From Alphaproteobacteria bacterium (GTDB lineage Bacteria > Pseudomonadota > Alphaproteobacteria > Rickettsiales > UBA3002): a stretch of 64,000 bases of DNA. The translations under genes and the position numbers were made by a program. Below the pieces are notes generated by a model. That model did not search any database. It was not told the DNA's origin and was given only the letters and a program-made list of their open reading frames with translations. The stretch spans positions 862,629 through 926,628 of the forward strand of contig JAFLDD010000001.1 in the NCBI GenBank assembly GCA_017302575.1, in the 5' to 3' direction. Below, in pieces: positions 11,177 to 60,946 of the stretch; the first letter of the stretch is position 1, and every line of letters starts with the position of its first letter.

Positions 11177-12304
11177 TTATGTGTGTAGGGGCAAATCGCC
11201 CTTTGCCCAACCGTGATGCAAACGCTCGCAGTGCGAGGAAAACTGCCCTTTTGCGATGGCATCGCGCAGCCCCTGCATCAATTCCTGATAGTAGTGCAGA
11301 TTATGCAAGGTCAGCAGCATTGGTCCTAGCATTTCATCGGCCTTGAATAGATGGTGCAGGTAGGCGCGGCTATAATCACGGCAAATAGGTGAGCTAGACG
11401 TTGGGTCAAGCGGGCGCGGATCATCCGCATGGCGGGCATTGCGGAGGTTAATCTCACCCATGCTCGTATAGGCACGTGCATTACGTGCTGAGCGCGTCGG
11501 GATGACGCAATCAAACATATCGACGCCACGACGGACCGCTTCGACAATATCATCTGGCTTGCCAACGCCCATCAGATAGCGCGGTGCATGCTCTGGAAGA
11601 TGTGGCATCGTGAAATCCAACACGCGAAGCATTTCAGCCTGCCCTTCACCCACCGCCAGACCGCCAATGGCGTAGCCATCAAATCCAATGCCTGTGAGCG
11701 CACGCGAGGAAATCTCGCGCAAATCATCATAGACGCTACCTTGCACGATACCGAATAGCGCATAGCCATCACGCGCCTTGAACGCATCTTTGGAACGCTG
11801 TGCCCAACGCATCGATAGCTCCATCGAACGTTTGGCTTCTTCATGTGTTGCGGGAAATGGCGTGCATTCGTCAAATACCATGGTGATGGTGCTGCCAAGC
11901 AGGTGCTGAATTTCAATGGAACGCTCGGGCGTGAGTTCCCATTTACTGCCATCAATATGCGATTGAAACGTAACGCCCTGCTCGCTCATTTTACGAAGTG
12001 CGGCAAGCGACATAACCTGAAATCCGCCTGAATCGGTAAGGATCGGACCCTGCCAGTTCATGAACTGATGCAGTCCGCCCAAGCGCGCAATACGCTCTGC
12101 CGTGGGGCGCAACATGAGGTGGTAGGTATTGCCTAAAATGATATCTGCACCCGTTGCCTTCACGTCTTCGGGGTGCATGGCTTTTACCGTGGCCGCCGTG
12201 CCAACGGGCATAAAGGCGGGCGTACGTATCGTGCCATGTGCTGTCGTGATTTCACCCGTGCGCGCTGCGCCATCGGTGGTGTGTATGTTTAGAGCAAATG
12301 TCAT
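11177..12304 (-). CDS. tgt: Queuine tRNA-ribosyltransferase
   Basis: [21 protein letters not shown] motifs; ATG 12304 (MTFALN...) chosen; the upstream ORF extension has no Tgt-like sequence. Confidence 0.93.
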
Positions 12305-12343
12305 CAAACCGTCATACTGAAAATAACGACAATTGACTACAAT
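12298..12343 (+). promoter_or_regulatory. Direct-repeat operator plus -10 module (ATGTCAT-CAAA-CCGTCAT-N19-GAC-TACAAT)
   Basis: Read directly; first repeat overlaps the tgt start codon on the other strand; GGAGG SD and ATG 12369 follow. Confidence 0.45.
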
Positions 12344-12368
12344 GGAAATAAGCGGAGGAGCAAGCAGG

Positions 12369-13040
12369 ATGTCGACAAAACCAGTCCCAAAGATAATTGC
12401 AGGCAGTGAGAATGCACCAGAATTGCTCACGCGTGAGACGCTCGATAATATGCGCGACACCATCCAGCAATCCATGCTCGATACAACTAACTATTTTTTC
12501 ATGTATCTTGAGAATCCAAACAATAAGCAAATTCCCGATTGTCTGCGCGTGAAGTTCAAATCTTTTGAGGGGCTCAATTTCTTGCGCGAAGAAGAGCCAG
12601 ATAGCCAATCACCATTTGAGATAATCGCGCAGGGGTTTCGCGAAATTCCCGAGGCAGATCGTAAAGAGATGTTGGCCCATCTCGGACAGATGCTTGAGAA
12701 GACCGTATTGATCTATCGCATCAAAGGACCGATGGAATTTGCTACACTTATTCCGATGGGCTATGCTGAGGAAAAGATGGACCCAGACACGCCGCTCAGC
12801 AGAGAGGAGGTGTTCTTTAAGGACGCGTGCTCGTTATTCCATTTCGTGCTGGCTTATAAAGGCTGCCTAATGCTGAATGAGAACGAATATCGAATGGGTT
12901 GCTACCCTAAAAACATCGATGACAAGCCTATAAATATGGCTGCATTCCTTTTTGAAAAGCGCGAGGGATTGGAAAGTTTCGTTGGTAAAGTTTCGCCCCT
13001 TTCCGAACTAGATCAGGGCGGCAAACGCAACATGTGCTAG
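12369..13040 (+). CDS. Orphan hypothetical protein (223 aa)
   Basis: ORF with GGAGG 10 nt upstream of ATG 12369; no family recognised; wedged between tgt and queA. Confidence 0.55.
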
Positions 13041-14059
13041 TAGCTACGTTCTAGCAAGCATGCATCTCCATATGAATAGAAACGATACTGATTAGCGATA
13101 GCATGCGCATAGGCTTGCTGCATCTTTTCCAATCCCGCAAAGGCGCTGACTAGCATGAACAAGGTTGATTTGGGTAGGTGGAAGTTGGTCATTAGCCTAT
13201 CGACAATTCTGAAGCGATAGCCTGGAGTTATGAAGATATTCGTGTCACCACTATAGGGCTTCAATATGCCATCTTCCGCCGCCACAGTCTCTAGAATGCG
13301 TAAGGACGTCGTGCCCACTGCAATAACTCTACCACCTGCTGCGCGGGCGGCATTAATGGCATCGGCGGTCTCTTGGGTTATCTCTGCCCATTCGTGGTGC
13401 ATGACATGCTCGGCCGTATCTTCGACCTTCACGGGCTGGAAGGTTCCTGCCCCTACATGCAACGTTACAAACGCTGTTTGAACGCCTTTACTTTTTATTT
13501 TTTCGAGCAAGTTTTGAGTGAAATGTAACCCTGCTGTTGGTGCAGCGACGGAGCCTTCATGGCGCGCATAGACGGTTTGGTAATTGGTTTTATCCTCCGC
13601 CGTATCATCGCGCGAGATGTAGGGCGGAAGCGGCATATGGCCATAACGTTCCAGTAGAAGATGAAGTTCGCTGCCGCTCTTTTCGAAGCGTAAAAGCACC
13701 TGCCCATCTTCGGTACGACCCGTTACTTCGGCATGAAAATTTTCACCAAATGTTAGGGTCATTCCCTCTTTTAATTTACGGGCAGGTTTGGCGAAGGCCG
13801 ACCAACCATCTGCCAACTTACGGTGCAGTAAAACTTCAACCTGCTTCTCACCCACGTTCGTGAATAGGCGTGCTGGAATCACTTTGCTGTTATTGAACAC
13901 TACGATATCGCCCGCATCCAGAAACTCTGGCACATCGGCGATGTGCTTATCACTCAGCGTGTCTGATACATGTAGCAGTTTGGCGGATTCGCGCGGTTCT
14001 GCGGGCGTATAAGCAATACGCTCTGGCGGTAGGTTGAAGTCAAACAGCGCGACGCGCAT
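13037..14059 (-). CDS. queA: S-adenosylmethionine:tRNA ribosyltransferase-isomerase
   Basis: FDFNLP N-terminus, PLPPYI, AAPTAGLHFT motifs. Confidence 0.93.
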   Translation of the reverse strand: MRVALFDFNLPPERIAYTPAEPRESAKLLHVSDTLSDKHIADVPEFLDAGDIVVFNNSKVIPARLFTNVGEKQVEVLLHRKLADGWSAFAKPARKLKEGMTLTFGENFHAEVTGRTEDGQVLLRFEKSGSELHLLLERYGHMPLPPYISRDDTAEDKTNYQTVYARHEGSVAAPTAGLHFTQNLLEKIKSKGVQTAFVTLHVGAGTFQPVKVEDTAEHVMHHEWAEITQETADAINAARAAGGRVIAVGTTSLRILETVAAEDGILKPYSGDTNIFITPGYRFRIVDRLMTNFHLPKSTLFMLVSAFAGLEKMQQAYAHAIANQYRFYSYGDACLLERSY

Positions 14060-15116: not shown

Positions 15117-15164
15117 AGGATCTCCTTGGGTTTTTGGTGTGATAGCGCAGTTGTGGCGCGATGT

Positions 15165-15665
15165 CTAGCCGCGTGGCAGCAGGAAATGCTGTTGCAGCGC
15201 CTCGGACACGTTGGCGGAAACGAATTTGCTGACATCCCCACCCAAGCGAGCGATTTGCTTCACAAAGCGCGACGAGATGAAGTGCGTCGCGTCGGAAGCA
15301 GTGAGGAACACGGTTTCAATTTCCGGTGCGATTTTGTTGTTCACGCTGGCCATCTGGAATTCGTATTCAAAGTCCGAGACCGCACGAAGACCGCGAATGA
15401 GCAATGTCGCTTTTTCTTCGCTGGCAAATTTAACGAGCAATCCAGAGAAGTGCTTCACCGTTACGCGATCAGCATCTGCACCCAGCATCTTTAAATCTTC
15501 ACGCACAAGACTAGCACGTTTTTTCATATCAAAAATGGGCTCTTTTGCGGAATCCTGCGCGACACCAATAATCAGTTTATCGACCACACGCAACGCACGA
15601 CGAATAATGTCCATATGTCCATGGGTGATGGGGTCAAATGTGCCTGGATAGATACCAATACGCAT
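15165..15665 (-). CDS. coaD: Phosphopantetheine adenylyltransferase
   Basis: YPGTFDPITHGH motif immediately after ATG 15665. Confidence 0.92.
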   Translation of the reverse strand: MRIGIYPGTFDPITHGHMDIIRRALRVVDKLIIGVAQDSAKEPIFDMKKRASLVREDLKMLGADADRVTVKHFSGLLVKFASEEKATLLIRGLRAVSDFEYEFQMASVNNKIAPEIETVFLTASDATHFISSRFVKQIARLGGDVSKFVSANVSEALQQHFLLPRG

Positions 15666-15727
15666 AAAGCTTACTCCGATGATTTGGGGCAGCATGCCCT
15701 TTTTTTGTGAATTGGGCAACTCTCCGT

Positions 15728-16255
15728 TTAAGCGCTTCTACGCGTTGTTACCTGCGATTCATATCGTGTGATAATATCGTCTAGCTGTTTAGCAAGTGCG
15801 TTGGCTTTTTCTTGAAACGTAGCAAGTAGTCTATTGGACGCTTGCAGTTTGTCGCACTCCTCGCCTTCTGCAGCAGGAAAGAACTCTAAATCCATCTTCA
15901 GTAACCTGAACTCTTCGTTACGGCCCTGCATGCGCGCTTGCACCCGCTTCAAGTCGTTTAGCACGGTTTCTGTGTCACGATTTTCTATCCCTTCCAACAG
16001 CATGAGTCCTGAAAAGAGGCGGTTGCCCACGTAATCATAAAACCAATCCACTGCACTATGAGAGGTCGTGCTAGGATGTTCTTGTGGCTTCGCATGCAGC
16101 AAACGCATTTTAGTGCGAATATCTTGAAACAATACGGTTAGCTGCTGATATTCATTCTCGTTAAGACTATTCAGCCCGCTTCGAAATTCTACAATTTCTC
16201 TGCGCAGATTGCTGGCATGAATATGATTATCTGGCGTTGCGTTATCGTAATGCAT
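15728..16255 (-). CDS. Orphan hypothetical protein (175 aa, predicted helical)
   Basis: Clean ORF; no SD; TGC-TAATAG sits 6 nt from the ATG; no family recognised. Confidence 0.55.
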   Translation of the reverse strand: MHYDNATPDNHIHASNLRREIVEFRSGLNSLNENEYQQLTVLFQDIRTKMRLLHAKPQEHPSTTSHSAVDWFYDYVGNRLFSGLMLLEGIENRDTETVLNDLKRVQARMQGRNEEFRLLKMDLEFFPAAEGEECDKLQASNRLLATFQEKANALAKQLDDIITRYESQVTTRRSA

Positions 16256-16261
16256 GCGACG

Positions 16262-16307
16262 CTATTAGCAGAATCCTAGTAGGGTAATTATGACAATTCG
16301 AAGAAAT
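16262..16307 (-). promoter_or_regulatory. Direct-repeat operator plus extended -10 module (ATTTCTT-CGAA-TTGTCAT-N19-TGC-TAATAG)
   Basis: Read directly; 22/23 nt identical to 16874-16896. Confidence 0.5.
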
Positions 16308-16349
16308 TAGAGGTCAAACTTCTCTTGAATAGGCCTAAACTTACGAGAC

Positions 16350-16841
16350 CTATTTTTTTGCGCCATCCATGCCGCTATTATGAAACGCCTTGGCTCTTTC
16401 ATTGAATAGTGGCATCGCAGTATCTAACTGCTGTTTGAGTGCCTCCAAATCTACACGCACCCCGCCGATGAGATACCCTAGCTGATTGTCATTTCTTTGA
16501 TCAATACTGTCCAAGATCTCAATAGCTGTATCGAGACGTTTTGCATAAGAAGAGGATAGTTGTTTTAGCTCGCGGTGGAAAATATCCTGCCCTAGTTCTG
16601 CTTTGGCGACGTAATTATTGATCACATTGCTCAAACGCCCTGGGAAAAAATCAGCACACTCACTATCCCAATGCTTTAGAAATTTAGCCAGTTCTGCACG
16701 AATAGCCGTATCTGTCGTTCTATAATCCAGTATCTCGTTTGCACTCGTAGAGAGCTTGCGCCACGCGTCCTTAACGGGCACGAATGGCCGAGTTTCCTCG
16801 ATTTCTAATACTACAACTTCACTGATAGGTTTAACATTCAT
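16350..16841 (-). CDS. Orphan hypothetical protein (163 aa, predicted helical)
   Basis: ATG 16841 (MNVKPI...) sits 6 nt from TGC-TATGTT; ORF-track start 16868 lies inside the promoter spacer. Confidence 0.55.
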   Translation of the reverse strand: MNVKPISEVVVLEIEETRPFVPVKDAWRKLSTSANEILDYRTTDTAIRAELAKFLKHWDSECADFFPGRLSNVINNYVAKAELGQDIFHRELKQLSSSYAKRLDTAIEILDSIDQRNDNQLGYLIGGVRVDLEALKQQLDTAMPLFNERAKAFHNSGMDGAKK

Positions 16842-16847
16842 GCGATT

Positions 16848-16893
16848 AACATAGCAGGTTAACAGCATGAATTTTATGACAATTCGATGAAAT
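16848..16893 (-). promoter_or_regulatory. Direct-repeat operator plus extended -10 module (ATTTCAT-CGAA-TTGTCAT-N19-TGC-TATGTT)
   Basis: Read directly; abuts the gyrA stop codon. Confidence 0.5.
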
Positions 16894-19628
16894 TAGGCCG
16901 CGTCTGTTGCCTCGGGCGCGTCAGGCGCTTCGCCCTCACCGCCTTCGATGCTGTCATCCACCACTGCGTCTTCTTCCTTGATGCGGGTAGCGGAAATGAC
17001 TTTCTCGCCATCCGTACGGAAGACAATCACACCTTGTGACGTACGGCCGCAGATGCGGATGTCTTTCACATTGGTGCGGATTAAGGTGCCTTTATCGGTC
17101 ATCAGCATGATCTGGTCGCCGTCTTGTACGGGGAAGCTCATCACGATGTTGCCGTTTTTCTTGGTGATGCCCATGGCGGTAACGCCTGAACCACCCCGAT
17201 CCGTCACGCGGTATTCGAAGGCGCTGGTGCGCTTGCCAAACCCGAGTTCGGTGATAGTGAGAATCATTTCTTCGGCCTTCGCCATTTCCTCGATTTGTGC
17301 CTCAGTAATGGTGATTGCGCTCAAATCAATTGAATCGCCTGCGTCTTCTTCGAGGCCTGAGGCACGACGACGCGCCGAAGCCACTTTCAGATATTGCTCG
17401 CGCTCTTCGGCGCTGGCACGAATACCATGCAGAATGGTCATTGATACCACACGGTCTTTATCGGCCAGTTTCATACCGCGCACGCCGTCGGACGTACGAG
17501 ATTTGAATACGCGCACTGCGGTGACTGGGAATCGCACGGCCTTGCCCTCTTTCGAGCAGAGCAATACGTGGTCTTCTTCACTACATGAACGCACGGCGAC
17601 CAATGCATCATCGGCGTCGAGCTTAATGGCAATTTTACCGTTGCTCATCACCGATTTGAAATCGCTCAAGTCGTTACGGCGCACGTTACCCGCAGCTGTC
17701 GAGAAGAAGATGTGGAGGTTATCCCACGTTGATTCGTCTTCCGGCAGTGGCATGAAGTTGGTGATGGTCTCGCCTTCCGCTAGTGGGAAAATATTCACGA
17801 GTGCCTTACCGCGTGCTTGAGGAGTGCTGAGTGGCAGGCGATAGACTTTGAGTTTGTAGACTTTACCCGTTGATGAGAAGAACAGCACCGGCGCGTGGGT
17901 TGATGCCACGAACAGCTCGGTGGTTGCGTCTTCTTCGCGCAGGTCGATACCCGAACGGCCTTTGCCACCGCGCTTTTGCGCACGGTAAGCCGCAAGCGGT
18001 ACGCGCTTGATATAACCACCCGCCGTGACCATCACGACCATTTCTTCGCGCTGGATGAGTGATTCAACATCGGCTTCGAATTCGGAATCTTCCATGATGC
18101 TACGGCGCGGCACGGCGAATTCTTCTTTTACTTTCACCAGCTCATCGCGCATCAGGCCGTAGAGTTTTTCGCGGCTGCCGAGGATGCTCAAGAACTCGGC
18201 GATTTCTACTGCCAGTTCTTTCAACTCACCGTCGATTTTCTCTTGTTCCAAGCCCGTCAGGCGTTGCAAGCGCAACTCAAGAATCGCCTTGGCTTGTGCT
18301 TCGGTGAACTTGATACGGTCGCCTACAAGTTCATTGCCTTTATCTTCAACAAGATCGAGCAGCGCTTTCACATTCGCGGCTTTCCAATCGCGCTTCATCA
18401 GCTCTTCTTTTGCCACGACAGGGTCTTTTGATGCACGAATCACCGCAATCACCTCGTCGATATTCGCAACGGCAATAGCCAGACCTATCAATACGTGTGC
18501 GCGGTCACGCGACTTCGTGAGCAAGAATTGTGTACGGCGCGAAATCACTTCTTCACGGAATTCGATGAATGCCTTCAATACCGTATGAATGTTGAGCAGT
18601 TGTGGGCGGCCATTATTGAGCGCCAGCATGTTCACACCGAAGCTGGTTTGCAACGGCGTATACATATAGAGTTGGTTCAGAACTACGTCGGCCACGGCGT
18701 CTTTTTTCACTTCGACCACTACGCGCACGCCCGATTTGTCGGACTCGTCACGCAGGTCTGAGATGCCTTCGATTTTCTTTTCTTTCACCAATTCGGCCAT
18801 GCGCTCAATCATGCGCGCTTTGTTCACTTGGTATGGAATCTCGGTGATGATGATGGATTCACGGTTGGTTTTCTTATTCACTTCGACTTCGGCTTTACCG
18901 CGCATCACGACCGAACCACGACCCGTGGTCATGGCGCTATACGAACCCGTACGGCCAAGGATGATACCGCCGGTTGGGAAATCAGGGCCTGGGCAAATCG
19001 CCGCGAGTTCTTCAATCGTGACATTCGGATTGTCGATCATTGCGCAGGTCGCGTCGATCACCTCGCCGAGGTTATGTGGCGGAATGTTCGTCGCCATACC
19101 CACCGCGATACCCGAACCACCATTCACCAACAGGTTGGGGAAGCGCGCAGGAAGCACGGATGGTTCTTGTTCAGAACCGTCGTAGTTTTCATGGAAATTG
19201 ACGGTGTCTTTGTCGATGTCTTCAAGCAATGCATGCGCTGCTTTGCTGAGGCGTGATTCGGTATAACGCATCGCGGCGGCGTTATCACCGTCCATCGAAC
19301 CGAAGTTACCCTGACCATCGACCAGCATCAAACCCATGCTAAAGGGCTGCGCCATGCGCACCATCGAGTCGTAAATCGCGCTGTCGCCGTGCGGGTGGTA
19401 TTTACCCATCACGTCACCGACGATACGTGCCGATTTTTTGTAAGGCTTGTTATATTCAACGCCCAGCTCGAGCATGCCGAAAAGAATGCGGCGGTGAACG
19501 GGTTTCAAACCGTCGCGCACGTCGGGAATGGCGCGGGATACGATCACGCTCATCGCGTAATCGAGGTAGCTTTTGCGCATTTCGTCTTCAATGGAAATCG
19601 GCAGGATTTCTGCGGTGGTCTCAACCAT
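16893..19628 (-). CDS. gyrA: DNA gyrase subunit A
   Basis: 911 aa; AAMRYTE active-site Tyr region, [12 protein letters not shown] region, C-terminal beta-pinwheel repeats and acidic tail. Confidence 0.97.
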
Positions 19629-50359: not shown

Positions 50360-51913
50360 TTACCTCATCAAGAATCCAGCTTGACCACGGCTACCTGCAA
50401 ATGCTGCATCAGGCGTCGTGGGTGCAGCAGGTGCTGCGGGCGGTAAATCGGCTTGCTTGGTTTCATCTACAGGCGCTGCTTCTGCATCACGAATCGCCTT
50501 CTCGGAATGCGGTGTTTTTGGCGACTCTCCTTGCAGTTTGCCAAGCACAATGCGCTCATAATCCGTTGGTGGCGTGTAGCCATCAAGCGGTGTAGCAAGC
50601 GTTGAGGGATCATCAATTGGCTTCACGATGTAAGGCGTGACGAGGATGACCAACTCGGTTTGGTTATTGCGGAATTCGCTTGAACGGAACAATGCACCCA
50701 AGACGGGAATATCACCCAGAATTGGGAATTCATTGATGTTATTTGCGTTGTCACTACGCAATAATCCTGCAATCGCGAAGGTCTGGCCACTACCTAAATC
50801 GACCGAGGTATTGGCGCGACGCGTTGTCAGTGCAGGTATGGTACCAAACGTTCCGCCCGTTATCGCGTTCTCGGTTGAAAGGGCGCTTACCTCAGGCAAG
50901 ACAGCAAGGTTGATTTTATCCTTGCTCATGACCGTCGGTGTAAATTGAAGGCTGACACCAAATTGGCGATATTCAATCGTCACGGTACCATCATCGCCTG
51001 GCACAGGAATTGGAATCTCACCACCCGCAAGGAAGTTAGCAGCTTGGCCCGAGCGCGCTGTTAAATTAGGCTCTGCGAGGATGCTGACCAATCCATCACG
51101 CTCGAGCGCATCAATCACCGCCGTGAAGTTATTGCCACCATCAATGTTACGAATGAAAAGGCTGTTATCGCCACTGGTGGTGTTGCGCAGCAATGTTCCC
51201 GTATCGCTGACAAAATCACGCCCCTGCCCCAAGCCGAAAATGAAATTACCTGGGCCGTTAAAGAGGCTCTCCCAGTTAATGCCAAAGCGTTTCAGCTCGG
51301 TGCGCGCCACCTCAACAATTTTAACTTTGAGCAACACCTGATCGCTCTGACTTGTATCCATCATATTAATGACGCTTTGGCCATTGCCACGCAGGAACGA
51401 TGTCGCCAAGCGACTGACCTTCTCGGCAAGCACGGGCGAGTTCACATCGCCTTTTAGGATGATTGCGTTATCGGTGGATGCTGCATCAATCTCGGCACCT
51501 GGCATCATTTGCGCGACGGCTTTGCGCAATTTGCTCAGGTTATGCGTTACAGTCACGGTACCTTGCAGAATAATGCGGTCATTCGCATCGACTGCCATAA
51601 TACTGGTTTCACCAATATTGCGACCGTTCACATAAATCATTTTAGGTGAGACTACTTGAACATCGGCGATGTCTGAATCCGCCACCACAACGGAAACTGC
51701 AGGTTCTTTTAAGCGGATCGGAATACCCTTATTTACTTCTACCGCGAACCCACTATCGAGCGAGGAACGCGCCAGCGTATCATAAAATTCTCCAGCTTCT
51801 TTGGTCGGCTTCGGTGGCGCAGCCATCACAGGATTCGCGCTAGCAAATACGAGTGCGCATGATGCGACATAGGATGTTGCACGACGCGTGAGCGATGTAC
51901 GTGGATGGGTCAT
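50360..51913 (-). CDS. cpaC: Tad/Cpa pilus secretin CpaC/RcpA
   Basis: BON-like N-domains and secretin C-domain (VLGDIPVLGALFRS). Confidence 0.9.
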   Translation of the reverse strand: MTHPRTSLTRRATSYVASCALVFASANPVMAAPPKPTKEAGEFYDTLARSSLDSGFAVEVNKGIPIRLKEPAVSVVVADSDIADVQVVSPKMIYVNGRNIGETSIMAVDANDRIILQGTVTVTHNLSKLRKAVAQMMPGAEIDAASTDNAIILKGDVNSPVLAEKVSRLATSFLRGNGQSVINMMDTSQSDQVLLKVKIVEVARTELKRFGINWESLFNGPGNFIFGLGQGRDFVSDTGTLLRNTTSGDNSLFIRNIDGGNNFTAVIDALERDGLVSILAEPNLTARSGQAANFLAGGEIPIPVPGDDGTVTIEYRQFGVSLQFTPTVMSKDKINLAVLPEVSALSTENAITGGTFGTIPALTTRRANTSVDLGSGQTFAIAGLLRSDNANNINEFPILGDIPVLGALFRSSEFRNNQTELVILVTPYIVKPIDDPSTLATPLDGYTPPTDYERIVLGKLQGESPKTPHSEKAIRDAEAAPVDETKQADLPPAAPAAPTTPDAAFAGSRGQAGFLMR

Positions 51914-52767
51914 TAGCGGAACTCCACTTCTTCGCGTTCTTTACCGCCGCGAATAATTTGCACTTTGGCACCAACAGCCATACGTGGCGTCACGATGGAG
52001 CTGACGTCACTATCACGCGTAACACTCTCCTCCTGACTTTTTTCAGCATTCTCTAATAAGGTGTGCAGATCAATCTCGCCTGCATCTTCCGTTTTTTCTG
52101 AGTCATCGTCTTTGGCAAGGCTACGCAAGCTTAGGCTGATTTTACCCAAATCCTTCGCAACGTTGATTTTCTCGGCTTGCTTGGGGGTGACCTCCAACGT
52201 CACCGTCTTAGCGAGCATGGCTTTATTCTCGGGATTATCGAGCATCTGATCGACCGCGAGGACACGCACGTCCTCTACGAAGGTTTCACTCGCACGCACG
52301 GGCGACTGACGACTTCCAGTGGAAAGCGTCAAAATCAAATCGACTTTATCACCAGGAAAAATAAAGCCCGCATTGCCCGACGTTGAATCCACCGCTATAG
52401 AAACTGCGCGCTTACCTTGCTCAAGCACCGCAGACATAAATCCGCCTTCGGTTGCTTTCACGAGCACATTTTTTACGACCGCCTCACCTTTTTGGATAGC
52501 GCGACGCGCAACGGAGCCGTCGAATTCTTTTAAGGTCACCTGACCATCCACCAACATAGATTCGGTGATGTTATCTTCAGGCCATTCTTTGAAGGTTAGA
52601 AAATCATTGGCACGCACGAAAGCGCCAGCAGGAATATCAATCGTTGCAACGACAATGCGTGGCCCCGTATTGGCATCGTCACTGCCCATACGACTTTTAA
52701 GGCCTAACGCCGTCACCAGCGCCAATATGGCGGCAACACCCAGCAATAGCAGACTACGTCCTTGCAT
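51913..52767 (-). CDS. cpaB: Flp pilus assembly protein CpaB/RcpC
   Basis: N-terminal TM helix, SAF-like domain; GGAG SD before ATG 52767. Confidence 0.85.
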   Translation of the reverse strand: MQGRSLLLLGVAAILALVTALGLKSRMGSDDANTGPRIVVATIDIPAGAFVRANDFLTFKEWPEDNITESMLVDGQVTLKEFDGSVARRAIQKGEAVVKNVLVKATEGGFMSAVLEQGKRAVSIAVDSTSGNAGFIFPGDKVDLILTLSTGSRQSPVRASETFVEDVRVLAVDQMLDNPENKAMLAKTVTLEVTPKQAEKINVAKDLGKISLSLRSLAKDDDSEKTEDAGEIDLHTLLENAEKSQEESVTRDSDVSSIVTPRMAVGAKVQIIRGGKEREEVEFR

Positions 52768-52851
52768 CGCTTCTCCCCTGTGCACTCTGCCGATTTACTC
52801 GGCTTATTTGTTTTTTAACTGTGGCACCCTACCACAGCTTTCACCACTTTA

Positions 52852-53949
52852 CTAGCTATTGATTTTTAACATTTTATTAGCATTTGAATCAAATTTCACT
52901 CTCTCTGGCACGCCTAACAAATAGCCCTGGAACATGCCCACGCCCATATCACTTAAGCGCTGATGCTGCGCCTCTGTCTCCACCCCCTCCGCGACCACGG
53001 TAGCACCAGATGTATGCGCCAGCTCCACCATGGCAGAGACATTGCTCGCCACACGCGCTTCCGTGATGTTACGGCTTAAGCGACCATCAAGCTTCACGAA
53101 ATCTGGTTTGATCTCAGCGATCACATGCTTGAGCTCTTCTGCGGTCATCACATCGTCCACTGCGAGCGAGAAGCCGCGCGTGCGACAATAATCGACGAGC
53201 GTCTTGAGTTGTTTTAACCCAGCCAGTGGTGGCTGAATCGAAATATCGAGCACAATGTGGCGCGGCATCAGACCAAACGACTCAACCGCCTGCGACAATC
53301 CTTCGAGATAATGCTCGGGACGGCTAATGGAACCCGTGACGAAATTGATGAAGAGATACCCATCACTATCTGAGCCCACAAACGTACGCACCGCCTCTTT
53401 GTGCAGCATGCGATCAAGCTGGAACTCAAGGTTCAGCATACGACTGGCTAGCATAATGGCTCCACCATCACGCATTGACCCGCCTTCTTCTTCAATGCGG
53501 GCGAAGGCTTCGAAGCCTGCCACTTTACCGCGCTTATCAATCACACGCTGCATGAAGCAGATCAGCCGATGATCCAGCAGCGCGTGCATAAGCCAAATAT
53601 GTTTGCTCGCCTGCTCCATCTCGATGTAGGAGCGCATAAGCATCGTCGCTTCTTCTTTGAGTGGTTGGGGCTGCGCCGGAATGAGTGCGACCTTGATGAC
53701 AGATGCGGCGCCGTGTTTCTTGATCACTTCACCAACATCATTAAACGCGCTTACCCATGGGTGCTTAATCGCCATGCCGAACATGAGCGACGAGTCATAC
53801 AGAGGCTTCATTCCCTTTGCTGCAAAATCCGCTTTGAGGCGTTCGGACAGGGCATTATCTGCGCATTGATAAATAAGCCAATAGTGCGGGGAAGGAATCC
53901 AAGGCGAATAAAAAGCGGGGCTGGGTGTCGTCACTGCGCTATCACTCAC
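52852..53949 (-). CDS. EAL-domain protein (putative c-di-GMP phosphodiesterase) with unknown N-terminal domain
   Basis: FEAFAR, KLD, VAEGVET, and QGYLLG EAL motifs; GTG start. Confidence 0.8.
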   Translation of the reverse strand: MSDSAVTTPSPAFYSPWIPSPHYWLIYQCADNALSERLKADFAAKGMKPLYDSSLMFGMAIKHPWVSAFNDVGEVIKKHGAASVIKVALIPAQPQPLKEEATMLMRSYIEMEQASKHIWLMHALLDHRLICFMQRVIDKRGKVAGFEAFARIEEEGGSMRDGGAIMLASRMLNLEFQLDRMLHKEAVRTFVGSDSDGYLFINFVTGSISRPEHYLEGLSQAVESFGLMPRHIVLDISIQPPLAGLKQLKTLVDYCRTRGFSLAVDDVMTAEELKHVIAEIKPDFVKLDGRLSRNITEARVASNVSAMVELAHTSGATVVAEGVETEAQHQRLSDMGVGMFQGYLLGVPERVKFDSNANKMLKINS

Positions 53950-58807: not shown

Positions 58808-59017
58808 CTAGTGGAGGCTCACAGGGTCGAGGTTGTTTTGACGCGCCGTGTAATAGGCGCCTTCCTCGGTTGGGAAGATGGCAAGCTGCGTACCGTCTGC
58901 GGCGAATACTGCAAAGCCTGCTTCGTTACCATCGGTTACTGGCTTAATGTAGGCCATGGTCTCAACGCCTACCATTGACATCATCAGCTCTTCCAAGGTT
59001 ACGGTTTCAACTTGCAT
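58808..59017 (-). CDS. DUF1150-family small protein
   Basis: MAYIKPV...FAVFAADGTQLAIF...ARQNNLDPVSLH pattern; GGAGA SD before ATG 59017. Confidence 0.75.
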   Translation of the reverse strand: MQVETVTLEELMMSMVGVETMAYIKPVTDGNEAGFAVFAADGTQLAIFPTEEGAYYTARQNNLDPVSLH

Positions 59018-59051
59018 ATTCTGTCTCCCAGTCGGTTTTTGTCTTACTTGC

Positions 59052-59097
59052 AATCTAACAAAAATCGGCCGCGCCATGTGTGACAGTTGCGTGAAAT
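59052..59097 (-). promoter_or_regulatory. Direct-repeat operator plus extended -10 module (ATTTCAC-GCAA-CTGTCAC-N19-TGT-TAGATT)
   Basis: Read directly; same 46-nt architecture as the other sites. Confidence 0.45.
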
Positions 59098-59112
59098 CGT
59101 TGCATCTGTGGA

Positions 59113-59130
59113 TTGTCATAGAGTTGTCAT
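59113..59130 (+). promoter_or_regulatory. Near-consensus Pho-box-like direct repeat TTGTCAT-AGAG-TTGTCAT, inverted relative to 59080-59097
   Basis: Read directly; no -10 at the module spacing on the plus strand. Confidence 0.4.
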
Positions 59131-59902: not shown

Positions 59903-60946
59903 TTATCTACCGCCCCTACCATCATTCTGTCGGATAAGTGGCGCGGGAGATTCCGCTGGTGCTTCTGTAGCAGGCTGAATAGGCGCAACTTGTCCAGCGC
60001 CGTTTAATATATCCCTCTGCTGCTGTAAGATGCCTTCTGCTGTTTCTTCAAATAACTGCCTGCGTTCATCCACTGTTGTAAAACTAAGGGATGCAGTAGC
60101 TAAATTTTGATAGTCTCTGGATTGTATGGCTTCTAAGCGCTGGTCGCGCGCGGACTGAAAATCCACGTTGTTAAAATAACCTTGATTATATATTGCTATT
60201 TCCTCAGGGTACATAAGAGGTGTAGTTGTCATTGCGTCTTCATCAACAGAAGCGGGCACGCCAACAAAGGGAAAGCCTGCGATAAATCTATCAAAACTCC
60301 AATTTGAGCCTTCCATTGATTGGTAATATACTGGCATTGACCCACTATTAATTGTTGATTCAAATACGTTGCCCGTTATTGAAGATATATGCCACTGATG
60401 CCACTCGCTTACTGAGGCATCAGCGTAAAAGCCTTCAACCACGTAATAATCTCCAGCACGCCTTAAGTCGTTTGGACGATCACTATTAATAGATCCAAGC
60501 ACATCGTCATCGTTCTCAACACGTTGCATCAGCAATGCTTCAACTACCGACATTTCTGAACAATCAAACTTACGTTGATCTGATAGAGTATTAAAGTTGC
60601 TGAGTCGCAAACCACTTGCTCGATATTCAGAGAAAAGTGGCTCTTCGCCCATTTCTTCAGAAACGATTTGTCCTAAGTTAGCTTCCCACGCTTCGCGTTG
60701 AGATCTCCCCCAACCAGGCATGGCTAATAGGCTCTGTGCGGTTGATGAAGTTGCCAATCTATCTCTAATACGCGACTCAACTCTTCGAAACGCCTGAGCA
60801 AATTCAGAATCATCTTCAATATTAATCGGTCGACTTAACTCTGGAACGGTAGTTGTATTCACCGCTCTATCACGCAAAATAGCATTCGCAGACACAGCAA
60901 CATAGCCGTCACGAATCATTTCAATTCTATCAGGATACTGACCCAC
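59903..60946 (-). CDS. Orphan protein (347 aa) with possible Cys/His transglutaminase-like core
   Basis: AT-rich ORF inserted between ftsK and lolA; FDCSEMSVVEALL ... EWHQWHISSITGNVFEST ordering; start GTG 60946 or ATG 60919. Confidence 0.55.
   Translation of the reverse strand: MGQYPDRIEMIRDGYVAVSANAILRDRAVNTTTVPELSRPINIEDDSEFAQAFRRVESRIRDRLATSSTAQSLLAMPGWGRSQREAWEANLGQIVSEEMGEEPLFSEYRASGLRLSNFNTLSDQRKFDCSEMSVVEALLMQRVENDDDVLGSINSDRPNDLRRAGDYYVVEGFYADASVSEWHQWHISSITGNVFESTINSGSMPVYYQSMEGSNWSFDRFIAGFPFVGVPASVDEDAMTTTPLMYPEEIAIYNQGYFNNVDFQSARDQRLEAIQSRDYQNLATASLSFTTVDERRQLFEETAEGILQQQRDILNGAGQVAPIQPATEAPAESPAPLIRQNDGRGGR

Follow-up and report, generated by a model that had tools for sequence, protein, structure and literature searches.

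A shared promoter module ahead of two fast-evolving orphan genes between gyrA and coaD in a rare alphaproteobacterial lineage

How do two adjacent genes, whose products show no significant similarity to each other, come to be preceded by almost the same sequence? The question is raised by the region between gyrA and coaD in the alphaproteobacterial DNA analysed here, a stretch of 64,000 nucleotides that we refer to as the window. In this stretch gyrA (positions 16893-19628, 911 amino acids; Pfam DNA_topoisoIV at 3e-162, together with DNA_gyraseA_C) is separated from coaD, the gene for phosphopantetheine adenylyltransferase (15165-15665; Pfam CTP_transf_like at 5e-23), by two all-helical orphans. 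The first, ORF163 or family A (16350-16841, NCBI J0M34_04570), encodes 163 amino acids, or 172 from an alternative start at 16868; the second, ORF175 or family B (15728-16255, NCBI J0M34_04565), encodes 175 amino acids, and coaD forms the downstream edge of the insertion. All four genes are on the minus strand, and the GC content of the inserted ORFs is 44-46% as against 52-55% in their flanks.

Two orphan genes at a conserved junction

The original prediction placed the pair as an insertion between gyrA and coaD, and comparative genomics of the interval bears this out. In about 45 of about 50 more distant gyrA-containing loci, the gap between gyrA and coaD is 11-183 bp, and four larger gaps are filled by unrelated genes. 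These loci come from a metagenome scan, also carry coaD, and include no relative closer than 59% identity, so that they inform on the ancestral gene order only. Because gyrA adjoins coaD in so many of them, the A-B pair is, judged by synteny, a lineage-specific insertion. Both genes would have entered this conserved junction before the present genome separated from its relative L014, which is represented by a Logan contig. Logan contigs with the present locus and that of its relative derive from the samples SRR13786856 and SRR13871843. A second conserved junction, between queA and tgt, also contains an inserted ORF.

Since L014 carries both genes in the order gyrA-A-B-coaD, between a gyrA tail (positions 1-189, 81% identical) and coaD (91% identical), the comparison of the two loci indicates that ORF163 and ORF175 are real protein genes, restricted to one rare alphaproteobacterial lineage. 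ORF163 is 25% identical to its L014 orthologue (pairwise E = 1e-13; 163 versus 155 amino acids) and ORF175 is 29% identical to the orthologue at 820-1359 (E = 3e-8; 175 versus 179 amino acids), whereas neighbouring housekeeping genes retain 78-92% identity (coaD 91%, pyrF 92%, DHOase 91%, queA 79% and tgt 78%). Both frames remain open in L014 despite saturated silent sites (dS > 1.2). Values of dN are 0.88 for A and 0.83 for B, compared with 0.05-0.18 for the neighbours, a non-synonymous rate roughly 5-17 times higher, or overall a pace of change about tenfold that of the neighbours. The very fast protein divergence that had been proposed from the sequence of this genome is therefore a measured property of the pair, and it marks A and B as candidates for diversifying or relaxed selection on their functions. 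Conserved segments are HW[DE]x7FPxRLSxVxNNY in family A, and A[VA][DE]WFxxYVG together with EKANAL in family B.

The original prediction described two helical, unrelated-looking proteins of no recognised family, and named relatives with the same genes in annotated families as the finding that would speak against it. L014 supplies the relative with the genes but not the family. Neither protein matched Pfam, NCBIfam, PADLOC or PHROGs at the curated cut-off or at significance, a word-indexed search of 5.8 billion clusters retrieved each protein itself only, tblastn against plasmids and phages found no match to either, and the best hit to PDB sequence profiles had E = 0.015. An exhaustive HMMER search of 1.84e9 representatives with ORF163 gave one distant homologue, P0003 (E = 1.9e-4), which is syntenic in L014, and a word-indexed search with the family A alignment returned the query and P0003 only. 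A search of every six-frame ORF in the window turned up no further A or B paralogues. A and B define two new and very narrow families, with two known members each among billions of sequences.

Both proteins are predicted to be all-helical, as originally described. The AF2 models (pLDDT 69 and pTM 0.63 for ORF163; pLDDT 62 and pTM 0.60 for ORF175) place terminal helices of 30 and 43 residues at 85-114 and 119-161 in ORF163, and at 95-124 and 132-174 in ORF175. According to these models A and B are generic long helical bundles, soluble, acidic and elongated, which share with long single-chain four-helix bundles the elongated all-alpha class and a length of about 160-180 residues. The best Foldseek matches are de novo designs (6z0c, 8d9o and 9e0h), no PDB match to either model reached E = 1e-3, and Foldseek pointed to neither a natural family nor a cofactor-ligand pattern.

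The repeat and the promoter module

The two genes are preceded by copies of a 23-nt repeat, both on the minus strand, at 16874-16896 ahead of ORF163 (CTAATTTCATCGAATTGTCATAA) and at 16288-16310 ahead of ORF175 (CTAATTTCTTCGAATTGTCATAA). As the original prediction had it, the copies agree at 22 of 23 positions; the window holds no further match with up to three mismatches, and shuffled sequence is expected to yield 0.00. Each copy includes a 17-nt box, TTTCAT-CGAAT-TGTCAT at 16876-16892 and TTTCTT-CGAAT-TGTCAT at 16290-16306, and the copy ahead of ORF163 overlaps the gyrA stop codon TAA (16893-16895), as had also been noted. Read on the gene strand, the upstream regions form a gapless alignment, as CTAATTTCWTCGAATTGTCATAA, 17 nt, CTGCTA, 6-7 nt and TCGCATG, with 40 of 58 positions identical and with the TGC-extended -10 and the ATG in the same register. 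The element ahead of ORF163 (16839-16856, minus strand) comprises an extended -10 TGC-TATGTT (16848-16856), the 6 nt AATCGC and an ATG at 16839-16841, and that of ORF175 (16253-16270, minus strand) comprises TGC-TAATAG (16262-16270), CGTCGC and an ATG at 16253-16255. The claim of a regulatory module duplicated ahead of both ORFs, with its parts at identical distances, is thereby upheld. Outside the 23 nt and the functional promoter elements 5 of 22 positions are identical, which is the random level. The geometry TCAY-N19-TKYTA-N10-ATG has three occurrences in the window, where 0.05 would be expected.

The original prediction spoke of an operator, which is probably the wrong word for a direct repeat with an 11-bp phase that is positioned upstream of an extended -10 with no -35. 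It is because of this arrangement that the 17-nt box probably looks like an activator site of the OmpR/PhoB type. Several other elements were considered and rejected. For a sigma-70 -35, TTGTCA would require a 23-nt spacer, and a promoter scan was empty there. By inspection, the GG/GC spacing is wrong for a sigma-54 promoter, and the sigma-32 and EcfG consensus sequences, the CtrA box TTAA-N7-TTAA and palindromic sites of the CRP/FNR type do not fit. Compared with the alpha-type LexA box GTTC-N7-GTTC, the site has TGTC as its second half, and its conserved A-Y does not match. Integron gene cassettes were discounted given that the repeats are direct, 5' of the ORFs and not attC-like, with no integrase nearby. 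The sole Rfam hit, a sub-threshold SAH-riboswitch inside coaD, was taken as chance.

No Shine-Dalgarno sequence precedes ORF163 or ORF175, and the -10/N6/ATG geometry suggests that their mRNAs would be leaderless. The same -10, N6 and ATG without a Shine-Dalgarno sequence is found at a third window gene, o332, and with N5 at gene B of L014. Leaderless mRNAs are common in Caulobacter. The genes described here resemble such alphaproteobacterial transcripts in having an ATG 6 nt past the -10 hexamer and no Shine-Dalgarno sequence, but differ in that the predicted start belongs to a module of constant layout (box, N19, TGY, -10, N6, ATG) at three window genes.

Recurrence of the box in the window and in L014

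The cassette is not specific to the A-B pair: the core recurs before at least five other window genes and is conserved in L014, marking it as a regulon motif. A search pattern built from the four A and B promoters only (TTCWTNNAAYTGTCAY, up to two mismatches) gave nine hits in the window against 2.9 expected, eight of them in the intergenic DNA that makes up 6.2% of its length. These eight intergenic sites are mostly ahead of low-GC orphan genes.

A third full module (3300-3353, minus strand), with CTTCAT-AAAAT-CTTCAC, N19, TGC-TAGACT, N6 and ATG, precedes the orphan o332 (2304-3302, minus strand), which has no match in Pfam or NCBIfam. Before o389 (7073-8242, minus strand), an unannotated membrane protein, the box CTTCAC-ACGAT-TGTCAC (8279-8295, minus strand) is followed after 7 nt by TGT-TACTCT, and it is conserved before the L014 orthologue (6958-6974, 20 of 23 positions identical). 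The box TGTCAT-CAAAC-CGTCAT (12299-12315, plus strand), with TACAAT after 22 nt, precedes a 223-aa orphan (12369-13040, plus strand) that is absent from L014; one half-site of this box is the reverse complement of the tgt start codon. CGTCAT-CAGAC-TGTCAT (26294-26310, minus strand) is found ahead of an 88-aa low-GC orphan (25988-26254, minus strand). Finally, a DUF1150/LarA-like gene (58808-59017, minus strand) is preceded by divergent boxes on both strands (59080-59130), TTTCAC-GCAAC-TGTCAC with N19 and TGT-TAGATT at 59080-59096 on the minus strand, and TGTCAT-AGAGT-TGTCAT at 59114-59130 on the plus strand. Within the window, the orphan proteins encoded behind the box show no similarity to one another.

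All 11 aligned sites have a 6+5+6 layout with an 11-bp offset and a spacer ending in RAY. The proximal repeat is TGTCAY in nine, the distal repeat is TTCAY in eight and GTCAY in three, and in 8 of the 11 promoters the TA of the -10 is exactly 22 nt past the box. Box and N19-TGY-TA spacing are kept before both L014 orthologues and before the orthologue of o389, with silent sites saturated. At a PWM score of at least 15 there is one hit in 507 kb of other alphaproteobacterial loci (0.13 per 64 kb) and eight in the 64-kb window, the counts for the window and L014 being partly circular as the matrix was trained on those sites. An exact scan of species-representative genomes with the 18-specified-base core returned 13 hits, about the estimated chance number. 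One of the scan hits is in another alphaproteobacterial MAG (L005), following an ihfB-like gene, where the similarity ends at the pattern.

Candidate regulators and the origin of the repeat

On balance, we lean towards the view that ORF163 and ORF175 belong, each with a promoter of its own, to a response-regulator regulon, possibly that of PhoB, and that their two promoters have been homogenised locally. The module would consist of a 17-bp direct repeat kTTCAY-nnRAY-TGTCAY (core kTTCAY-N5-TGTCAY) with the OmpR/PhoB-family layout, suited to a head-to-tail dimer, of an extended -10, TGY-TAnnnn, exactly 22 nt downstream with no -35, and of an ATG 6 nt further on with no Shine-Dalgarno sequence, such that the A of the start codon would be the first nucleotide transcribed. 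The box, at about -51 to -35, would be bound by a response regulator in its phosphorylated form, PhoB or a close paralogue being the most likely, which would recruit RNA polymerase to the extended -10. A single signal, for which phosphate limitation is the leading candidate, would then co-induce A, B and the other box-bearing genes. If this is correct, a small-genome lineage known from metagenomes only has wired unannotated, fast-evolving genes to one response-regulator box by way of a minimal leaderless promoter, which would provide a clean natural example of orphan or acquired genes joining an existing regulon. Known principles are not overturned by this, and the box offers a handle for predicting the rest of the regulon and the inducing condition.

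Pho boxes are defined as two 7-nt direct repeats with a 4-nt A/T-rich spacer (PMC4415409, PMC3465305), and their 11-nt direct-repeat units are occupied in a head-to-tail arrangement (PMC4415409). In E. coli the consensus reads CTGTCAT-A(AT)A(TA)-CTGT(CA)A(CT), genuine sites including TTTTCATAAATCTGTCAT (PMC3465305), and the ChIP-seq motif of Caulobacter PhoB is YGTCAYR, an A-rich 4-nt spacer and YGTCAYR (bioRxiv 10.1101/741363). The window sites share with these the two direct repeats in 11-bp phase, the TGTCAY proximal core, the A-rich spacer ending in A-Y and a promoter with no -35, and their weaker distal repeat has a counterpart in genuine E. coli sites such as TTTTCATAAATCTGTCAT. They differ in that the distal half-site is usually TTCAY, not TGTCAY. 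At E. coli phoA and pstS, the Pho box takes the place of the -35, with about 10 nt between its end and the -10, a spacing seen here only at o389 and its L014 orthologue; at the promoters of A, B, o332 and the DUF1150 gene it is 22 nt, one helical turn further upstream. As most PHO boxes in S. meliloti are upstream of the promoter (PMC3131613), however, the 10-nt spacing may not be defining for Pho boxes in Alphaproteobacteria.

The targets of the box also depart from a Pho regulon, in that they are orphans and not phosphate-acquisition genes. None of pstS, pstCAB-phoU, phoB or phn is present in the 64-kb window or in L014, so that it is motif resemblance which links the box to PhoB. The site density is far above that of known Pho regulons: at the rate of the window, with eight sites in 64 kb, a genome would contain about 200, which favours a different or expanded regulator because known PhoB regulons are far smaller. 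It is thus possible, if somewhat unlikely in our estimation, that the same architecture serves a regulator other than PhoB, a lineage-specific global member of the OmpR family that controls accessory, low-GC and fast-evolving genes. The scarcity of the motif in other alphaproteobacterial loci compared with the window would agree with this, as would box-promoter spacing unlike that of E. coli and targets that are mostly unannotated and low in GC (o332, the 223-aa and 88-aa orphans, o389, A and B). Caulobacter LarA is a heat-shock protein (PMC10665427), and the DUF1150/LarA-like target, which is not a phosphate gene, therefore does not point to phosphate. The TGTCAY core with its A-rich spacer is, on the other hand, the signature of PhoB, and we know of no alternative regulator with TGTCAY-type specificity. 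In gamma-proteobacteria PhoP, PmrA and SsrB control horizontally acquired or effector genes, as in the Salmonella PhoP and the Legionella and Coxiella PmrA regulons. The window sites resemble the PhoP and PmrA regulons in the OmpR-family direct repeat, the fixed distance to the -10 and the lineage-specific, fast-evolving, low-GC targets, but the recognition sequences, TGTTTA repeats for PhoP and TTAA repeats for PmrA, differ from the TGTCAY box, and the organism studied here is not known to have a secretion system or a host association.

The near-identity of the two boxes calls for an explanation of its own. Other pairs of sites agree at a mean of 13.8 and a maximum of 20 of 23 positions, and the orthologous A and B boxes of L014 at 15 of 23. 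Because 22 of 23 exceeds every other pair, it suggests that the promoter was recently copied locally or converted, and not that the genes were duplicated long ago. Under the regulon reading, such an event between the A and B promoters in this lineage would have produced the present boxes.

Alternatively, A and B could be ancient tandem duplicates in which selection kept the promoter recognisable and the coding sequences lost all detectable similarity. We regard this as unlikely, even though loss of signal between paralogues is plausible where orthologues have already fallen to 25-29% and neighbours stand at 78-92%. Both models have the same predicted helix layout, ending in the 30- and 43-residue helices (pLDDT 62-69), both match long single-chain four-helix bundles in Foldseek (8d9o, 8d9p, 9e0h and 9fed), and in both a Trp-containing conserved segment is found about 25 residues before the 30-residue helix. 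Such bundles are generic, however, and the models are of moderate confidence. Direct comparison of A with B gave a BLASTP E of 1.6, an alignment score indistinguishable from shuffles (z = 0.06) and, by profile-profile comparison in hhalign, which has low power with two 2-sequence profiles (Neff about 1.5), a probability of 0.3%. The same module would also drive unrelated genes (o332 and the DUF1150 gene), so that a shared promoter is not evidence of ancestry, and the L014 boxes agree at 15 positions only. The original prediction had offered promoter capture or very fast divergence and proposed profile and structure searches of the two proteins against each other and against databases; the fast divergence has now been measured. 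Either promoter capture or divergence from a duplicate could underlie the pair; profile-profile comparison showed no A-B homology.

It is more doubtful still that a module of about 58 bp, copied or converted within the lineage, recruits new ORFs at the gyrA-coaD and queA-tgt junctions into one large stress regulon. If it did, spread of the module would amount to promoter propagation, bringing orphan genes under regulation with no need of a ribosome-binding site, and A and B could then also be paralogues that have diverged beyond recognition while retaining the module.

We consider it improbable that the ORFs were brought in or picked up by a small mobile element or mobile promoter, of which the repeat would be the trace, with no dedicated regulator involved. 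Such an origin would fit the short near-identical sequences ahead of non-homologous genes, the low GC of the inserts and the arrival of ORFs at two conserved junctions. Putative mobile promoters are likewise recognised as highly similar upstream sequences before non-homologous genes with no IS element, the criterion being 80% or more identity across 50 nt or longer (Matus-Garcia, Nijveen and van Passel 2012; PMC3575422). The two regions described here fall below this threshold, with 69% over the 58-nt module and 22 of 23 in the core only, and their similarity is short and largely explained by regulator site, -10 and start, the remainder being at the 5-of-22 level. Against an element of this kind are also the lack of terminal inverted repeats, target-site duplications or a transposase, the absence of plasmid or phage matches for either protein, and the chance-level outcome of the exact genome scan. 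That the ORFs are non-functional, decaying or spurious and the repeat due to chance or neutral duplication is very hard to credit, since despite homologues in one relative only, low GC and high dN, the two frames are still intact and of similar length in L014, where silent sites are saturated, local motifs persist at the pairwise E-values given above, the promoter elements are conserved and chance would yield 0.00 copies of the repeat.

Under the favoured regulon reading, regulated expression would add to any read-through from gyrA. Downstream of ORF163 and ORF175 there are weak hairpins (z = -0.06 and -1.3) that face the plus strand, and with no convincing terminators read-through is likely. 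Counting against the regulon reading is the arrangement in L014, where 7 nt separate the end of gene B from the coaD ATG; as the coaD ribosome-binding site is inside gene B, transcription across the pair would have to be at least partly constitutive.

The gyrA–coaD junction and its orphan pair

The sequence comes from a metagenome-assembled genome labelled 'Alphaproteobacteria bacterium' (1.86-Mb contig). All genes of the gyrA–coaD region are encoded on the minus strand: gyrA (16893-19628), ORF163 (16350-16841; NCBI J0M34_04570, annotated as the 163-aa form, an alternative start at 16868 giving 172 aa), ORF175 (15728-16255; J0M34_04565) and coaD (15165-15665). The two intervening ORFs had been described as orphan, helical and mutually dissimilar, and this description holds. 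Neither matches Pfam, NCBIfam, PADLOC or PHROGs at curated cut-off or significance, neither has a match in plasmid or phage collections or a significant one among PDB sequence profiles, and in a word-indexed search of 5.8 billion protein clusters each finds nothing but itself. Both are predicted to be all-helical (ORF163, pLDDT 69, pTM 0.63; ORF175, pLDDT 62, pTM 0.60); Foldseek against the PDB gives no match at E = 1e-3 or better for either model, the top hits being generic or de novo designed long four-helix bundles. Sequence comparison brings out no similarity between the two proteins (BLASTP E = 1.6; alignment score z = 0.06 against shuffles).

An exhaustive HMMER search of ORF163 against 1.84 billion representatives turned up a single remote homologue, P0003 (155 aa, 25% identical, E = 1.9e-4; pairwise E = 1e-13). 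It lies on a 16.7-kb Logan contig of a relative (L014) in the same context as in the window, namely gyrA tail, P0003, a 179-aa ORF, coaD, two PPIases, queA and tgt, and the 179-aa ORF is the ORF175 orthologue (29% identity, E = 3e-8). As judged from these searches, ORF163 and ORF175 define two new, very narrow protein families, A and B, with sharply conserved segments HW[DE]x7FPxRLSxVxNNY in A and A[VA][DE]WFxxYVG, plus EKANAL, in B. Between window and L014, amino acid identity is 91-92% for coaD, pyrF and DHOase (dN 0.05-0.07), 81% for the last 63 aa of gyrA and 78-79% for queA and tgt (dN 0.16-0.18), against 25% for A (dN 0.88) and 29% for B (dN 0.83), so that the pair evolves some 5-17 times faster than its neighbours. 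Synonymous sites are saturated (dS > 1.2). At a distance that randomises neutral sequence, both reading frames are nevertheless open and similar in length in the two contigs, so that A and B are genuine genes under some constraint.

The original prediction offered promoter capture or very fast protein divergence. The divergence is borne out by these rates. The two models are alike in helix layout, each closing with a 30- and a 43-residue helix, but profile–profile comparison of the families (two members each) gives a probability of 0.3%; A and B may thus be paralogues or not, and either promoter capture or divergence of duplicates may apply.

A metagenome scan with coaD returned distant relatives only (at most 59% identical), among which coaD comes 11-183 bp after gyrA in about 45 of about 50 gyrA-containing loci; the four larger gaps hold unrelated genes. 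On this comparison the A–B pair is thus an insertion specific to this lineage, placed in a junction that is otherwise conserved, and its GC content is 44-46% compared with 52-55% in the flanks. In L014 (1340-1375) only 7 nt separate the end of gene B, the ORF175 orthologue, from the coaD ATG (62 nt in the window), and the coaD ribosome-binding site AAGGAG sits inside gene B, indicating that essential coaD is co-transcribed with an orphan there.

A recurrent putative promoter module

The 23-mers at 16288-16310 and 16874-16896 agree at 22/23 positions, the upstream copy overlapping the gyrA stop codon, and have no third match in the window even with 3 mismatches allowed (shuffles expect 0.00). 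Read in gene orientation, the sequences upstream of both ORFs form a gap-free alignment, CTAATTTCWTCGAATTGTCATAA - 17 nt - CTGCTA - 6/7 nt - TCGCATG, with 40/58 positions identical and the TGC-extended -10 and ATG in equal register, so the near-identity and common spacing first reported both stand.

The cassette extends beyond the pair. A pattern built solely from the four A/B promoters (two in the window, two in L014), TTCWTNNAAYTGTCAY, has nine window matches at up to 2 mismatches (2.9 expected), eight of which fall in intergenic sequence, 6.2% of the window. Once aligned, the box reads kTTCAY-nnRAY-TGTCAY, two direct repeats in 11-bp phase, and precedes the unannotated ORFs o332 (2304-3302) and o389 (7073-8242), a 223-aa orphan (12369-13040), ORF175, ORF163, an 88-aa orphan (25988-26254) and a DUF1150/LarA-like gene (58808-59017), where a second, inverted box is also present. 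Most of these genes are low in GC, and only the DUF1150 gene is assigned to a Pfam or NCBIfam family.

Of 11 promoters aligned, 8 have a -10 hexamer that opens with TA, mostly preceded by TGY, exactly 22 nt past the box; a -35 element is absent. Between -10 and ATG lie 6 nt in ORF163, ORF175 and o332, where a Shine-Dalgarno sequence is lacking, and 5 nt in L014 gene B; this geometry would place the transcription start at the A of the ATG, and the mRNAs are accordingly predicted to be leaderless. The composite TCAY-N19-TKYTA-N10-ATG occurs three times in the window against 0.05 expected. The best evidence here for a functional box is that box and spacing are kept before both L014 A/B orthologues and the o389 orthologue although silent sites are saturated. 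At an equal score threshold there is one site in 507 kb taken from other alphaproteobacterial loci and eight in the window; the background figure alone is independent, because the matrix was trained on window and L014 sites. An exact AATTTCATCGAATTGTCAT lies between ihfB-like and pilin-like genes of a 1.79-Mb alphaproteobacterial MAG (L005, CBDFFW010000001.1, 7437-7455), oriented to fire antisense into ihfB; nothing is similar beyond the pattern.

A second lineage-specific insertion (12299-13040, plus), the 223-aa low-GC orphan without a Pfam or NCBIfam family, separates tgt (11177-12304, minus) from queA (13037-14059, minus); in L014 these two genes share a 4-nt overlap. Cut off from queA, tgt must now have its own promoter, and as one of its half-sites the orphan's Pho-like box uses the tgt start codon in reverse complement (ATGACA). 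The 332-aa orphan o332 (region 2304-3353, minus) has the predicted leaderless module in full, the third such copy, and its HLDHVKKDN...NLIDLF looks by eye like a kinase catalytic loop with a metal-binding motif after it, with no confirmation from Pfam, NCBIfam or PDB sequence searches. The DUF1150/LarA-like gene (69 aa; region 58808-59130) has divergent boxes at 59080-59096 (minus) and 59114-59130 (plus). The multi-pass membrane protein o389 (region 7073-8295, minus; L014 6958-8129) changes at an intermediate pace (46-50% identical to L014, dN 0.44), keeps its box in L014, and alone in the window has an E. coli-like 10 nt between box and extended -10.

Origin of the near-identical copies

Over 23 nt, all site pairs share a mean of 13.8 positions and at most 20 (an orthologous pair), the two window copies 22 and the two L014 boxes 15. 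Outside box, -10 and start region, identity is at the random level (5/22). The gene pair is older than the split from L014, so the near-identity probably stems from recent copying or gene conversion that affected the promoter core within this lineage, rather than from an old gene duplication, and constraint by a shared regulon does not account for it by itself. The similarity stays below the published threshold for 'putative mobile promoters' (PMC3575422), set at 80% or more identity across 50 nt or more. That a leaderless promoter module is spreading and draws orphan genes into a stress regulon seems rather unlikely.

Candidate regulators and neighbouring features

Direct repeats spaced by 11 bp are a signature of OmpR/PhoB-family winged-helix regulators bound head to tail (PMC4415409). 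The box core closely resembles PhoB sites of both E. coli, where the Pho box is CTGTCAT-A(AT)A(TA)-CTGT(CA)A(CT) and real sites include TTTTCATAAATCTGTCAT (PMC3465305), and Caulobacter, whose ChIP-seq motif is YGTCAYR, an A-rich 4-nt spacer and YGTCAYR (bioRxiv 10.1101/741363). Repeat and core together suggest an activator-dependent promoter with an extended -10 and no -35. On this reading RNA polymerase would be brought in by a phosphorylated PhoB-like regulator bound at about -51 to -35, and ORF163 and ORF175 would be switched on together with the remaining box-bearing genes, their induction adding to read-through from gyrA; no convincing terminator lies between the genes. What had been called an operator is more likely an activator site common to a regulon.

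The assignment to PhoB itself is weakened on several counts. In E. coli Pho promoters the box ends 10 nt from the -10; here the distance is 22 nt, one helical turn farther. The window offers no pst or pho gene for comparison, its box density is far beyond that of known Pho regulons, and the targets include the LarA-like gene, of heat-shock type (in Caulobacter, heat-shock LarA activates Lon protease; PMC10665427). A serious rival to PhoB is a global regulator, specific to this lineage, that controls accessory genes, set against the likeness of the core to Pho boxes. The closest known kinds are PhoB/Pho-box promoters and promoter reuse, together with response-regulator regulons of acquired genes and the leaderless mRNAs of Alphaproteobacteria.

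Just past the ORF175 and ORF163 stops, at 15686-15707 and 16330-16359, a hairpin is followed by a T-run in plus-strand orientation, antisense to all local genes; their energies are weak (z = -0.2 to -1.8), and they could be barriers to antisense transcription. An SAH riboswitch candidate at the coaD 3' end and downstream spacer (15136-15209, minus) was taken as chance (Rfam 25.2 bits, below the gathering score of 37; E = 0.06). Elsewhere, Tad/Flp pilus genes (RcpC, secretin) and an EAL-domain protein occupy about 50360-53949 (Pfam labels; matching Logan contig L095), and further unannotated ORFs of low GC are found at 59903-60946 and at 6601-7071, where a HAD_SAK_2 domain protein is encoded.
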